Assembly (NCBI GenBank): GCA_000165345.1
Contig: CM000432.1
Location: forward strand, 288,001 to 352,000
Direction: 5' to 3'
Length of the DNA: 64,000 nt
The notes below the pieces were generated by a model. That model saw only the letters and a program-made list of their open reading frames with translations, searched no databases and was not told the DNA's origin. Shown piece by piece: positions 32,921 through 37,185 of this stretch (position 1 is the first letter of the stretch; the number at the start of each line of letters is the position of its first letter). The position numbers and the translations under genes were made by a program.

Positions 32921-34600
32921 TTAATCTTCAAAAAATGAAAATCCGTCAGCATAACTTTCGGTTCCTTTTACAGCGTATTCCGGTAATTGATTTTCACCAC
33001 TACTGCCGCCAGAAATTACAAATGGAGATTCAGAAGTTCTTTGTAGTCCTCTTTGTTCATAACCCATACTTCCAAGATATTGAATTTGACCTTGAACGCC
33101 ATCAGTAACATCAATATTTTTAAATGTTCCTTCTGTGCCTCTTAAGTTTCTCATTCCAATACTATCACCTGTTAAATCTCCTCCTCTAGTTCTCTTCCTT
33201 TTAAGTCCATATCCCAATCCTCCTAATAGCCCTAAACCTGCAATACTTCCCACTACCGCTCCAGCTACTACTCCTGGATCGACCGAACTTTTAGTTGTAG
33301 CTGCGGCTGTAGTTGTAGTTAATTCAGTAGAAACTGTTGATGGTGCAGTAGTTGTCATAGTGGTTGGTGTAGTGGTTGGAGGACTTGTTGCTGTTGTTGG
33401 AGGACTTGTTGCTGTTGTTGGAGGACTTGTTGCTGTTGTTGGAGGACTTGTTGCTGTTGTTGGTGGACTTGTTGCTGTTGTTGGTGGACTTGTTGCTGTT
33501 GTTGGAGGACTTGTTGCTGTTGTTGGTGGACTTGTTGCTGTTGTTGGTGGACTTGTTGCTGTTGTTGGAGGACTTGTTGCTGTTGTTGGTGGACTTGTTG
33601 CTGTTGTTGGAGGACTTGTTGCTGTTGTTGGTGGACTTGTTGCTGTTGTTGGAGGACTTGTTGCTGTTGTTGGAGGACTTGTTGCTGTTGTTGGAGGACT
33701 TGTTGCTGTTGTTGGAGGACTTGTTGCTGTTGTTGGAGGACTTGTTGCTGTTGTTGTTGGACTTGTTGCTGTTGTTGGCGGATTTGTATCAGTGCTCAAT
33801 GTTGTGTCAGTGCTCAATGTTGTGTCAGTTGATTGCGTTGTAACTGGAGGTAAAGTTGTTGTTGATGCAGGTGGTGCAACAGGACCTCCTCCAAAGCCAT
33901 ATGTTACTACTTTATCTTTTGGGTCGTCTTGGTTTTCATTTGAAGAAACACCATTCGCGTTTGAATTGTCGGGTTCATCATCTTGATTTTTTCCAGTAAA
34001 ACCAGAATCATCTGACACGGCATCCCCTTCTTGATTCCCTCCAATTGAAAGATTACTTGATGAATCTTGTACAGATGTTGAATCTTTTCTTTGTTCGTCT
34101 GATGAAGTTTCAAACCCGGATGTTTTTTCATAGTCACCATCTTCAAAATCAATGGATGCATCGTTCCCAAAGCCTTGACTGGTTTCCTCGAGATCAGATC
34201 CTCCAACACTAGTACCACCAGCACTAGTACCACCAACACTAGTACCACCAACACTAGTACCACCAATGATCGTACCACCAATGCTCGTACCACCAATACT
34301 CGTACCACCAATACTCGTACCACCGGCACTAGATCCTCCAACACTAGTACCACCAATACTAATACCTCCAATACTAGTTCCATCAATACTCGTACCACCA
34401 ATACTCACTTTATCTTCATTTTCCAAATCAATTCCATCATTAAAACTCATTCCATCAATCCCAGAATTCATGCTCTCTGTTTCCATATTAGGAAGGCTTA
34501 AGTCTGATAATTGAAGACTTTTGTTATCAATTTCTTCTCCATTTAATAAATTCAAAATATTAAAGAAAAAGAAAATTAAAGAAAATATTTTATTATTCAT
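32921..34600 (-). CDS. Mucin-like type I membrane glycoprotein (signal peptide, Gly/Thr/Ser repeats, Thr/Pro repeat array, TM helix, short cytoplasmic tail)
   Basis: The N-terminus MNNKIFSLIFFFFNILNLLNGEE is a signal peptide. It is followed by about 14 copies of GGTS[IV], then an acidic region, then about 19 copies of TTATSPP flanked by TLSTDT repeats. A TM helix (VVAGAVVGSIAGLGLLGGLGYGL) with a KRKRTR stop-transfer follows, then an 85-aa cytoplasmic tail. The Thr/Ser/Pro arrays are typical O-glycosylation substrates. Confidence 0.75.
   Translation of the reverse strand: MNNKIFSLIFFFFNILNLLNGEEIDNKSLQLSDLSLPNMETESMNSGIDGMSFNDGIDLENEDKVSIGGTSIDGTSIGGISIGGTSVGGSSAGGTSIGGTSIGGTSIGGTIIGGTSVGGTSVGGTSAGGTSVGGSDLEETSQGFGNDASIDFEDGDYEKTSGFETSSDEQRKDSTSVQDSSSNLSIGGNQEGDAVSDDSGFTGKNQDDEPDNSNANGVSSNENQDDPKDKVVTYGFGGGPVAPPASTTTLPPVTTQSTDTTLSTDTTLSTDTNPPTTATSPTTTATSPPTTATSPPTTATSPPTTATSPPTTATSPPTTATSPPTTATSPPTTATSPPTTATSPPTTATSPPTTATSPPTTATSPPTTATSPPTTATSPPTTATSPPTTATSPPTTATSPPTTATSPPTTTPTTMTTTAPSTVSTELTTTTAAATTKSSVDPGVVAGAVVGSIAGLGLLGGLGYGLKRKRTRGGDLTGDSIGMRNLRGTEGTFKNIDVTDGVQGQIQYLGSMGYEQRGLQRTSESPFVISGGSSGENQLPEYAVKGTESYADGFSFFED
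33377..33778. repeat. 21-bp tandem repeat, about 19 near-identical copies (GGAGGACTTGTTGCTGTTGTT), encoding TTATSPP on the minus strand
   Basis: Directly visible periodicity. The units differ only by GGA/GGT third-position changes. Confidence 0.9.
34200..34410. repeat. 15-bp tandem repeat, about 14 copies (ACTAGTACCACCAAC variants), encoding GGTS[IV] on the minus strand
   Basis: Directly visible periodicity within the mucin N-terminal domain. Confidence 0.85.
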
Positions 34601-35391
34601 CTTTTCTGTATTGTTCTAATACTATAAAAATATATATTTTTAATCAGCTTAATGTTTAAAATTTATAATTAATATTTTTAAATATATATATAAATATATA
34701 TATTTAAAAATATATATTAGTTTATTTATTTAGTTTCTTTTGTATTTTATTATTTTCAATAACAATTGCATACAAAATAAATTTTCTAAAATTATTTAGA
34801 ACAATTTCAGTCTTGGATAATATGGATTTTATTTTATATCTATTTCTGCTCAATATCAAAGATACATATTTAAATGCTAAAATATTAATCCATTTATTTT
34901 GTCCACTTATAAATCTTAAATAGAAACTTATATGTATCAAACTAATTATTTCTATAACTATATCTAAAACATTATATCGAGCGATAACTATAAAATATTA
35001 ATTATTATTTACTATCTTTAATATTTTAAATAAATTGATTACTAAGTTAGAAAAAAAAAATGTATATATTGATTATTAATCTCATAAATATCTACTTTCT
35101 ATTTTACCGTACTAATTTTTGATATTTCAAAATATTAATAAATTATTTACTTTTTTTATTCCTTCTTGTATGTTAAATTTTCTTTTTTTTTTTTTAATTA
35201 TCTCCTCCAACTTTATAAATCCAATAATATTTTTGCATTACTCGCATTCCCCACATTCCCGCCATTGCATTTATTATGTCAAATATTTACATGTAATTAA
35301 TTTGTATATGGAGAGAAAAATTGCTTTATTTTTTCTTTTTCTTTTTTTTAATTGAATTATTAATTTTTATTAATATAAAGATAATATTAAT

Positions 35392-37185
35392 TTATGGTAT
35401 AATATCAACATTTTCTAGTATATCACTCAAAGTTGCTTTTGATATATATTTATCATATTTTTCTTCAATCATTGAATTACTATCACTTATTAAATGGTTA
35501 TGATTAAATTTATTATTATCTTTTACTTCAAATAATAATTGATACTTTTCATCCATTTTTTTGTTGATAATAGTTTTAAAATAAGTTTGATTCTCACTTA
35601 TAAAATTAATGTTTGACATTATTTGTTCATTATTTTTTATTTGGTTTGAATTTATATGTTTTTTTTTTTTGGTTGTTCTTGCTTCACATTCTTTAATAAT
35701 ATCGTCCATTTTTTCATGACAATGATTTTTGATCATATTACCAAAAGTTAAACCTAAAGCACCACCAATTGCTGCACCAAAACTCACTCCAATAGGACCT
35801 AAAATTAATCCAGCAGCACCTCCACAAACTAGCCCAGCAGTAGAACCATGAAATGGCCACCAATTAGCTTTTGATTTACTTCCTTTTGCAACAGATGATG
35901 CACCTTGTGCTGTGTTAATTTGAGCTAAAGCCGATTGTTCTTCTAGATAATCTATTTCTCCAGTACTTTCAATAATTAATTTATAAATTTCAGTTTGAAC
36001 TTCTCGTATTTTAATCATAGAGTGCTTAATATTTGTAACCTTGTTTTTACATTCCATAAGAGATTCAATATCAATATTTTCCATAACGATAGAAGCTCTT
36101 CGTGATTGATTTATCAAACCAAATTGAATTTCTGAAAATTGGCAACTATTACTATTACTATGGTTAACTTCTAATATTGATTTGTCCGAATTAAAATCAT
36201 GTATTGATGATGGGCATACAATCACTTCTGGCAATAAAATATAATTGACATTATTACTTAAATTATCACTGATTTCTTCATCGTAATCAATTTCATCAAC
36301 ATTCGATTCGTTTTCATCAATAGATAATTTATAAGAATTTTGATTTTGAGAATAATGATGATCAACATTAGATTTTTTTTCAAAATTTGTATTAGTTAAT
36401 TTATTATCATTTAATATTTGATCATTGTCTTGATTATCAGCATAATAAATATCATTTTCTAGAATAGATGTAACATTATTGTTAATATTAAAATACTCAA
36501 TTTCAATAAAATTATCATTTTTTGTATTCCAAATACTCATAATAAATGCTTGATTGAATAAATTATTTGCTATTTTACTTAACATTTTAAAATCACTAAT
36601 AAATTTTTCATGTTTTACACAATTTACTGTACATACATGATATTCTTCGATATTATTTTTATTTTGAGAAATAATATTATCCATTTCTATTTCATTAAAT
36701 TCTTGTATATCATTTGAAATACCGGTGCTCTTTGGGAAATTATCATTCCAATAAATAAACCAGTTGTAACTTAACGAATATTTACTCAAAACTATACAAT
36801 CTTCACCTAAAAGCTTGCATTTCTCTTCTAATATTCCACCTACTCTTAATCCAACTGATATGCATACTCTAACCAAATCTATTATATTTTTCTTTATATT
36901 AATAGCACAATTTTCTGCTTGATATTCTTCCAAACTATTTTTTAGCTTCACTAATAAAGAAGATAAATCAATCATTAATTCTTCTATTAATTCTTCCTGA
37001 TTTAAATTTTTCACAATTTTATTTAATGAACAATCTTCAAATTTTAACTTTCTTTCATTTTTAGGTAAACTAATTATTTCACTACTATTTAATAATTCTT
37101 TTTTACCATATCTCATTAAATTTGAGTCCAAATTATTATTTTTACTGTTTTTTTCTCCATAAATGTTAGTAATTGTCTTTTCCAT
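35392..37185 (-). CDS. Hypothetical protein with a C-terminal glycine-zipper membrane hairpin, a possible truncated relative of the adjacent DUF726 protein
   Basis: 597-aa ORF. The C-terminal hydrophobic Gly-rich segment (AGLVCGGAAGLILGPIGVSFGAAIGGALGLTFG) resembles the Gly-zipper segment of the neighbouring gene (GATILGGVVLATATTIAAPGILAGLGTLGLAFPGILG). It has no hydrolase domain. Confidence 0.45.
   Translation of the reverse strand: MEKTITNIYGEKNSKNNNLDSNLMRYGKKELLNSSEIISLPKNERKLKFEDCSLNKIVKNLNQEELIEELMIDLSSLLVKLKNSLEEYQAENCAINIKKNIIDLVRVCISVGLRVGGILEEKCKLLGEDCIVLSKYSLSYNWFIYWNDNFPKSTGISNDIQEFNEIEMDNIISQNKNNIEEYHVCTVNCVKHEKFISDFKMLSKIANNLFNQAFIMSIWNTKNDNFIEIEYFNINNNVTSILENDIYYADNQDNDQILNDNKLTNTNFEKKSNVDHHYSQNQNSYKLSIDENESNVDEIDYDEEISDNLSNNVNYILLPEVIVCPSSIHDFNSDKSILEVNHSNSNSCQFSEIQFGLINQSRRASIVMENIDIESLMECKNKVTNIKHSMIKIREVQTEIYKLIIESTGEIDYLEEQSALAQINTAQGASSVAKGSKSKANWWPFHGSTAGLVCGGAAGLILGPIGVSFGAAIGGALGLTFGNMIKNHCHEKMDDIIKECEARTTKKKKHINSNQIKNNEQIMSNINFISENQTYFKTIINKKMDEKYQLLFEVKDNNKFNHNHLISDSNSMIEEKYDKYISKATLSDILENVDIIP

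Follow-up and report, generated by a model that had tools for sequence, protein, structure and literature searches.

Muc12 (cgd4_1300), a catalogued Cryptosporidium mucin-type protein with polymorphic repeat arrays, fast evolution and female-stage transcription

Introduction

The subject of this study is Muc12 (cgd4_1300), a mucin-type gene of Cryptosporidium parvum carried on the reverse strand of a 64,000-nucleotide stretch of DNA (GenBank assembly GCA_000165345.1, contig CM000432.1, positions 288,001 to 352,000), hereafter the window. Its closest described counterparts come from several systems. Metazoan membrane mucins of the MUC1 type are type I proteins in which a length-polymorphic tandem array rich in Pro, Thr and Ser (PTS) forms an extended glycosylated stalk. 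In Toxoplasma, the cyst-wall glycoprotein CST1 has a Thr-rich mucin domain, and the O-linked N-acetylgalactosamine (O-GalNAc) on its repeats gives the wall its rigidity. In Cryptosporidium itself, gp60 combines a trinucleotide-encoded poly-Ser tract with a glycosylphosphatidylinositol anchor, furin-type processing and expression in invasive stages. Muc25 is a small-granule protein that is exported into host microvilli during asexual growth. GP900 is a type I transmembrane mucin reported to be cleaved and shed (PMC9111948), and its gene has a high density of insertions and deletions among C. parvum isolates. Here we describe how Muc12 compares with these proteins in architecture, repeat variation, rate of evolution and stage of expression.

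Results

Identity and distribution of the gene

Five flanking ORFs (open reading frames) encode proteins identical to those of C. parvum Iowa II and IOWA-ATCC, which map to the 1.1-Mb chromosome 4. The window belongs to this chromosome, and the first-pass annotation, made from the letters alone, had guessed the genus correctly. The Muc12 ORF is intronless and encodes 559 amino acids (aa) plus a stop codon (Table 1), and it is identical in nucleotide sequence to the gene called on C. parvum CP029783.1. It is cgd4_1300, an already known gene catalogued as a predicted mucin-type glycoprotein, because its syntenic orthologue cubi01576 is equated with cgd4_1300 and Chro.40149 under the name Muc12 in Table S2 of Liu et al. 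2016 (PMC5146892), where C. andersoni has no Muc12. In addition, both cgd4_1300 primers of Mauzy et al. 2012 fall within the ORF, at 33253-33274 (-) and 33091-33112 (+).

The sole homologue in the protein databases, in full-length and in repeat-removed searches, is this C. ubiquitum protein, cubi_01576, with 45% identity. Its gene lies between the gene for a Gly-zipper protein upstream and a convergent, tail-to-tail Rtf2 gene, and Rtf2 gene calls adjoin the Muc12 orthologue at every locus compared. No relative outside Cryptosporidium emerged from two word-indexed protein searches or from an exhaustive HMMER scan of the last 139 aa. The scan returned only cubi_01576 and one compositional match to the transmembrane (TM) segment. 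Apart from cubi_01576, the protein matches were compositional throughout, to PT-rich proteins and to a 164-aa protein with a similar Gly-rich TM segment. The protein collections searched contained neither the exact 559-aa protein nor the orthologues of C. parvum, C. hominis, C. tyzzeri and C. meleagridis. We do not take this as true absence, because genes of the right size are called on the corresponding contigs, and low-complexity proteins, or this family in particular, seem to be under-represented in these indexes. These orthologues were recovered through their neighbouring genes in other assemblies. Muc12 is an orphan gene restricted to Cryptosporidium, reported or retrieved in C. parvum, C. 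hominis, C. tyzzeri, C. meleagridis, C. ubiquitum and C. canis. A study of C. canis lists MUC12 among the genes that are highly polymorphic between isolates, and according to Xu et al. 2020 the gene was lost in C. bovis and C. ryanae. Our literature search found no paper that discusses cgd4_1300, Chro.40149 or CPATCC_001613 in its main text.

Transcription in the female stage

Public expression data place Muc12 transcription in the macrogamont, the female stage, and not in the asexual or invasive stages. By quantitative reverse transcription PCR in HCT-8 cultures (Mauzy et al. 2012, PMC3305300), cgd4_1300 is at about zero from 2 to 36 h, the period in which merozoites form, reaches 5.9e-8 to 4.3e-7 at 48 h and stands at 2-8e-9 at 72 h. 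The 48-h point carries 98.9% of its signal, and the gene was classed as 48-h-specific. RNA-seq of sorted cells (Tandel et al. 2019) gives 2.30 log2 counts per million (log2CPM) in asexual stages, 9.81 in in-vitro females and 5.58 in in-vivo females. The log fold change of in-vitro female over asexual cells is +7.51, or ~180-fold. The gene appears in the sheet of genes found in "Female in vitro only", among the top-500 expressed genes, as does the rhomboid cgd7_3020. It occurs once in the sporozoite-comparison file and is missing from the sheet that sporozoites and in-vitro females have in common.

According to a 2026 review (PMC13657310), microneme, rhoptry and glideosome genes are not expressed in in-vitro females. 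The membrane and secreted proteins that appear in early females are thought to serve fertilisation, and a later female wave includes mucins and a C-type lectin that are secreted for building the oocyst wall. The first-pass annotation had cast the protein as a candidate for host attachment. This role finds no support, because expression is female-stage, with transcript near background at 2-36 h and in asexual cells, and because the protein lacks adhesive domains.

Architecture of the protein

The proposal of a secreted, mucin-like type I membrane protein agrees with our re-analysis, in which a signal peptide and a single TM segment were both found. The signal peptide consists of MNNK followed by a 15-residue hydrophobic core and is kept in six species; its cleavage would follow aa 21. 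The TM segment is the sole 19-residue hydropathy peak above 1.6 in the protein and lies near the C-terminus with a basic cluster on its C-terminal side, as in single-pass type I proteins. The signal peptide and the long tandem-repeated PTS domain are two marks of a mucin-type protein, and the gene is listed in the mucin catalogue. Mucin-type O-glycosylation is predicted through this NetOGlyc-based listing; the dense O-glycosylation proposed at first pass would, in array 1, involve a sequence free of proline.

The mature polypeptide has a mass of 53 kDa and an isoelectric point (pI) of 4.05. Ser and Thr make up 169 of the 418 ectodomain residues, and the composition includes no Cys, no Trp and two N-glycosylation sequons. 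The acidic Ser-rich region has a pI of 4.1. An AlphaFold (AF2) model built on a two-sequence alignment contains helices at residues 2-20 and 442-462 only, with a mean predicted local distance difference test (pLDDT) score of 35.7, which fits a disordered ectodomain and tail. No Pfam family matches Muc12, even at E<=1-10; a weak match of the TM region to Mucin15 (E 0.58) is far below threshold.

In a comparison that included C. parvum, C. hominis, C. tyzzeri, C. meleagridis and C. ubiquitum, the motif VTYGFGGGPVAPPA is invariant, and V232-A245 and T247 are identical across all six species, with Ser or Thr at position 246. The STDTTL mini-array that follows aligns with an expanded TDPVDK array in C. 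ubiquitum. The tail is conserved only at the juxtamembrane stretch, at NLRG[TS]xG and at the C-terminal LPEYAV.G.E.Y.DGFSFFED (32924-32986). A poly-Gly tract in the tail (window ~32990-33010 (-), aa ~531-537) forms a third length-variable tract of the protein. The C. parvum version of this tract is GGSSGEN, C. hominis has GSGSGGGGGGGEG, and C. meleagridis has GGGGGGGGG(G)DG, the two C. meleagridis isolates differing by one Gly.

Table 1. Features of the Muc12 locus and of its flanks, with positions in the window
Feature	Residues	Positions	Strand	Basis or remark
Rtf2 stop codon TAA		32916..32918	+	translation ends LFSDTID, then stop
Muc12 coding sequence (cgd4_1300)	1-559	32921..34600	-	stop codon at 32921-32923
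C-terminal tail, presumed cytoplasmic	467-559 (93 aa)	32924..33202	-	alignment
TM segment VDPGVVAGAVVGSIAGLGLLGGLGYGL, then KRKRTR	440-466	33203..33283	-	Kyte-Doolittle hydropathy; Gly-rich, GxxxGxxxG spacing
PTS domain	193 aa	33284-33862	-	59% S+T, 22% P; holds the STDTTL mini-array and array 2
Array 2, 19 x 21 bp, PPTTATS	274-406	33383..33781	-	Tandem Repeats Finder (TRF); core of PTS domain
Mini-array STDTTL, 18 bp x 2.6		33784..33829	-	TRF
Conserved motif VTYGFGGGPVAPPAS	232-246	33863..33907	-	cross-species alignment
Acidic Ser-rich non-repeat region	136-231	33908..34195	-	26 D+E and 16 S in 96 aa
Array 1, 14 x 15 bp, S[IVA]GG[TS]	66-135	34196..34405	-	TRF and unit list
Acidic N-terminal segment, fast-evolving	22-65	34406..34537	-	12 D+E in 44 aa
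Predicted signal peptide MNNKIFSLIFFFFNILNLLNG, then EE at cleavage	1-21	34538..34600	-	basic n-region, hydrophobic core
E2F-like GGCGGGAA box		35256..35263	-	in the 790-bp AT-rich intergenic region upstream of Muc12

Repeat arrays and length polymorphism

The initial estimates of about 14 GGTS[IV] repeats of 15 bp and about 19 TTATSPP repeats of 21 bp proved accurate. Counted unit by unit, array 1 holds exactly 14 pentapeptides, and array 2 holds 19 heptapeptides, which read PPTTATS in 18 cases and PTTTATS in one. TRF reports 19.7 copies with 96% matches for the 21-bp array (33375-33787) and 13.5 copies with 84% matches for the 15-bp array (34203-34405). The near-perfect repeat identity that had been claimed for both arrays therefore applies to the 21-bp array and not to the 15-bp array. 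The other DNA variation in array 2 is synonymous and falls on the first proline codon, where 11 units have CCT, 6 have CCA and 1 has CCG. The variant-unit code of the array is CDAAAAABABABBABBAAA.

The first-pass annotation had also predicted length polymorphism, and copy number does vary in both arrays, within and between species. IOWA-type C. parvum (the window, CP029783 and CP141121) encodes 559 aa with 14 units in array 1 and 19 in array 2, and the HLJ allele (CM109964) encodes 493 aa with 12 and 10 units and a further 7-aa segment, TQTTIVT. Four C. hominis assemblies give proteins of 466, 466, 475 and 480 aa with 10, 10, 11 and 12 units in array 1. Their array 2 site is occupied by degenerate, Thr-rich sequence that includes 3-4 TTTE(A) units and keeps only remnants of the array. 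The C. tyzzeri protein has 475 aa with 2 and 15 units, and two C. meleagridis assemblies give 444 and 448 aa with 7 and 8 units in array 1 and 7 in array 2. The repeat units of C. ubiquitum differ from those of C. parvum.

Within C. parvum, the length polymorphism was sampled from two alleles, whose PPTTATS stretches measure 133 and 70 residues. All differences between the IOWA-type and HLJ-type alleles lie within the arrays or at the indel beside array 2, the 21-nt unique-sequence segment encoding TQTTIVT, which is found in the HLJ allele and in other species and not in the IOWA type. The first two units of array 2 (code C, D) are common to both alleles, and the interiors are different. The array is homogenised to two main synonymous variants in C. 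parvum, the CCT and CCA units, and two IOWA-type chromosome assemblies differ in it by a single CCT-to-CCA unit switch. In C. tyzzeri and C. meleagridis its units are more diverged. These patterns fit a recent history of unit gain and loss through slippage or unequal exchange.

Two deposited gene models at orthologous loci call for comment. The annotated 175-nt "intron" of cubi_01576 (C. ubiquitum LRBP01000025.1) covers 100 N inside a TQPATP[AT]P repeat, and the flanks of this gap lie in different reading frames. The intron is an assembly-gap artefact, and the real C. ubiquitum protein is therefore longer than the annotated 419 aa. The deposited 437-aa model on C. hominis JTAI01000021.1 starts 38 codons past the ATG of the ORF. 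It has no signal peptide because its start is misplaced; the intact ORF encodes 475 aa.

Rate of evolution

For Muc12 as a whole, nonsynonymous divergence (dN) between C. parvum and C. hominis is 0.094 and the ratio of nonsynonymous to synonymous divergence (omega) is 0.64, compared with 0.007-0.012 and 0.10-0.20 in four neighbouring genes. Much the same is seen against C. tyzzeri and C. meleagridis, and across species omega is 0.54-0.69 for Muc12 versus 0.10-0.27 for the neighbours. Muc12 evolves ~10 times faster than its neighbour genes.

The rate differs along the protein. The TM segment is its most conserved part (omega 0-0.2), and the acidic region at aa 136-231 keeps 87-94% aa identity to other species (omega 0.28-0.67). 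The N-terminal 65 aa show 10 nonsynonymous and no synonymous changes against C. hominis, and 17 and one against C. tyzzeri. Omega in the tail is 1.2-2.3, which exceeds the neighbours (p 1e-6 to 2e-5), and the ratios of the N-terminus and the tail are far above those of the neighbours (Fisher p 1e-6 to 2e-4). However, the values above 1 in the tail and N-terminus are not significant against neutrality (binomial p 0.08-0.4), and we dropped positive selection as a firm claim because omega does not significantly exceed 1. The safe statement is that most of Muc12 beyond the TM segment and a few short motifs is either unconstrained or positively selected.

Flanking genes and upstream region

The stop codons of Muc12 and of the convergent Rtf2 gene are 2 bp apart, as had been noted at first pass. 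The 3' untranslated regions of the two genes must therefore overlap the coding sequence of the partner. Where gene models are complete, the spacing is 2 bp in C. parvum, C. tyzzeri and C. meleagridis and 6 bp in C. ubiquitum. The upstream neighbour, cgd4_1310 (35392-37185 (-)), encodes a 597-aa membrane protein with a Gly-zipper_Omp domain and a Gly-rich TM region. We detected no sequence relationship between this protein and Muc12. Tandel et al. 2019 show a modest increase of its transcript from asexual cells to females (log2CPM 1.3, 3.4 and 5.7).

The E2F-like GGCGGGAA box sits in a small GC island, 560-760 bp before the Muc12 ATG and ~105-130 bp past the stop of the Gly-zipper gene. It occupies the same relative place in C. 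parvum, C. hominis, C. meleagridis and C. ubiquitum and has no exact match in C. tyzzeri. From its position and conservation, it is a possible candidate for a promoter element. A second conserved block, ATAGTTATCGCTCG, lies ~430 bp upstream of Muc12 (window ~34977-34990), and the GCATGC motif is absent from the Muc12 upstream region. Directly upstream of the start codon are AT-rich tandem repeats with periods of 14-26 (34655-34732). The length of the upstream intergenic region is 889 bp in one C. hominis assembly and 804 bp in another, a difference of 85 bp.

Discussion

We consider Muc12 to be, with reasonable probability, an O-glycosylated type I membrane mucin made by the macrogamont for the female gamete coat and/or the oocyst wall. 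This role is proposed from its transcription in the macrogamont rather than in asexual or invasive stages. The signal peptide would route the protein to the endoplasmic reticulum. The 193-residue PTS domain, presumably decorated with O-GalNAc, may form a stiff extended stalk that keeps the acidic, disordered N-terminal region with its 14 S[IV]GGT units away from the membrane, and the length of this stalk would vary with repeat number. The conserved Gly-rich helix would act as the membrane anchor, and the conserved aromatic and acidic motif at the C-terminus is possibly a trafficking signal. Muc12 would then join the surface coat of the female gamete and/or the glycoprotein layer or glycocalyx of the oocyst wall. 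It might be shed at a helix-destabilised TM segment before delivery to the wall; Gly and Ala are abundant in the TM segment, VVAGAVVGSIAGLGLLGGLG, and together with the co-expressed rhomboid cgd7_3020 this makes shedding plausible. Slippage or unequal recombination would resize both arrays much faster than point substitution changes them, giving rise to alleles specific to isolates and species.

Several observations weigh against placing Muc12 in the gamete coat or the oocyst wall. Its transcript drops ~100-fold by 72 h in HCT-8 cultures while unfertilised females persist, and it is 19-fold lower in in-vivo than in in-vitro females (LogFC.invitroVsinvivo -4.22; Tandel et al. 2019). Expression may therefore mark a short female window, because sustained levels might be expected of a structural wall component. 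In the same dataset, "female" means infected cells positive for the COWP1 reporter, with males outside the comparison. File 4 of Mauzy et al. (PMC3305300) labels cgd4_1300 as "RRM and KH domain protein", the description of cgd4_130. This is evidently a labelling slip, since the values and primers fit cgd4_1300. The descriptions in that file appear to be shifted or mis-joined in at least this row. The Cryptosporidium oocyst wall proteins (COWPs) are Cys-rich and have no membrane anchor, whereas Muc12 has no Cys and is anchored. Our literature search found no localisation, proteomic detection or glycopeptide data for Muc12, and the signal peptide, topology and glycosylation calls rest on hydropathy, conservation and the literature listing.

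Other explanations of the protein's role are less probable. Muc12 could be a gamete-recognition protein, with the microgamete binding the variable N-terminus and the arrays and with rapid evolution reflecting sexual selection or mating barriers. The female-specific and possibly early or transient expression would suit such a role, as would a membrane-anchored rather than simply secreted protein, a membrane-distal N-terminus with 10 nonsynonymous and no synonymous changes between C. parvum and C. hominis, and arrays that evolve in concert. Egg-coat recognition proteins with concertedly evolving repeats offer an analogue, of which Muc12 would be a protozoan counterpart. The review cited above (PMC13657310) hypothesises a fertilisation role for early female membrane proteins and describes the mode of female-male interaction as unknown. 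We nevertheless regard gamete recognition as unlikely. Omega is not significantly above 1, and the putative cytoplasmic tail evolves equally fast, which suggests that constraint has been relaxed and not that selection has been directed at an exposed surface. In addition, array 1 is nearly lost in C. tyzzeri. The more specific proposal that Muc12 is the female-gamete receptor for the microgamete, and that its arrays and N-terminus set mating compatibility between Cryptosporidium lineages, is also improbable. It is quite unlikely, too, that Muc12 is a surface or micronemal mucin of sporozoites or merozoites, serving in host attachment and as a protective antigen in the manner of gp900 or gp40/15. 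Its build of signal peptide, Thr-rich arrays, single TM segment and short tail resembles that of gp900 (PMC9111948), and its fast evolution and length polymorphism resemble those of gp60. Some transcript is also present in in-vivo females, which include post-fertilisation stages making sporozoite proteins. However, neither sorted asexual stages nor cultures at 2-36 h show transcript above background, and its level is highest in in-vitro females, which are silent for microneme, rhoptry and glideosome genes (PMC13657310). The gene is missing from the sporozoite-shared sheet and was not found in the supplementary tables of a 1,761-antigen array study. By Pfam, the protein has no adhesive domain (TSR, vWA, Apple, EGF or lectin), it has no Cys, and its tail has no sub-terminal Trp and ends in FSFFED.

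The repeats themselves also admit other readings. Copy-number differences might be artefacts of repeat collapse or expansion during assembly, and part of the data invites this suspicion. All five short-read Logan contigs, from HLJ-type parasites, end at the start of the 21-bp array, the C. ubiquitum assembly has its 100-N gap in the PT-repeat bridged by a false intron, and several of the compared assemblies are short-read based. Array 2 counts from short-read assemblies may be wrong. As an account of the polymorphism as a whole, though, artefact is very unlikely. Array 1, at 210 bp, lies wholly inside contigs and has 12 units in six HLJ-type assemblies, including the five short-read contigs, against 14 in the IOWA type. 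Two independent chromosome-level IOWA-type assemblies concur on 19 units in array 2, the unique-sequence indel of the HLJ allele is common to other species, and C. hominis has a different sequence in place of array 2. We also entertained a folded beta-helix of pentapeptide repeats for the S[IV]GGT array, which would make it a structured binding module. A period of five residues, one of them hydrophobic in each unit, speaks for such a fold. Pentapeptide repeats follow the pattern [STAV][DN][LF][STR][G], which the C. ubiquitum units SNIDG and MSVGG resemble. Against it, Pfam gives no pentapeptide (PF00805) match even at E<=10, and a range from 2 to 14 copies among close species is hard to square with a defined fold. 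The AF2 model shows coil, with no strands and pLDDT of 27-32 in this region, though with an alignment of two sequences this is a weak test. We rejected the beta-helix, which we hold to be most improbable.

Muc12 had been catalogued before and belongs to an ordinary Cryptosporidium class, and its discovery value is small. The useful part lies in two points, namely its female stage and the untrustworthiness of repeat lengths taken from short-read assemblies. Since public expression data place it in the macrogamont, Muc12 should not be presumed an invasion or vaccine antigen; its relevance is to fertilisation, oocyst-wall biogenesis and transmission blocking rather than to attachment. A role in gamete recognition, if true, would give a first molecular handle on Cryptosporidium fertilisation, a mystery according to PMC13657310. 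The suggested use as a typing marker holds in that copy number differs between isolates, but the gene is outside the validated seven-locus scheme for multilocus variable-number tandem-repeat analysis of C. parvum, whose chromosome 4 locus is cgd4_2350_796. The lengths of array 2 are unreliable in many genomes because short-read assemblies break at the 21-bp repeats, and typing with this array calls for long-read amplicons first.

Among known systems, the nearest record is that of the gene itself. Liu et al. 2016 and Xu et al. 2020 list the same gene (Muc12; Chro.40149, cubi_01576) in their mucin catalogue and put it among the "potential invasion-related" proteins, whereas the expression data indicate the female stage. 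GP900 (cgd7_4020) shares with Muc12 the signal peptide, Thr-rich mucin arrays, single TM segment and short cytoplasmic tail. However, GP900 is several times larger and is a micronemal product of sporozoites and merozoites, Muc12 is female-stage and free of Cys, and our protein searches detected no sequence similarity between the two. Like Muc12, gp60 (gp40/15, cgd6_1080), the standard subtyping locus, has a length-variable Ser/Thr tract and evolves fast. This tract is O-glycosylated in gp60, as is presumed for Muc12, which differs in its 15- and 21-bp minisatellites, its TM anchor and its female-stage expression. Muc25 (cgd6_40, marker MSC6-7) is a small, highly polymorphic Cryptosporidium mucin in use as a typing marker; unlike it, Muc12 is membrane-anchored and female-stage. 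With MUC1-type mucins Muc12 shares neither a SEA domain nor homology, and the likeness is one of convergent architecture only. CST1 offers a further parallel, as an apicomplexan mucin domain from a wall-building stage, with the placement of Muc12 in a wall being our conjecture. CST1 is secreted and has SRS domains, whereas Muc12 has no folded domain and is anchored by its TM segment.

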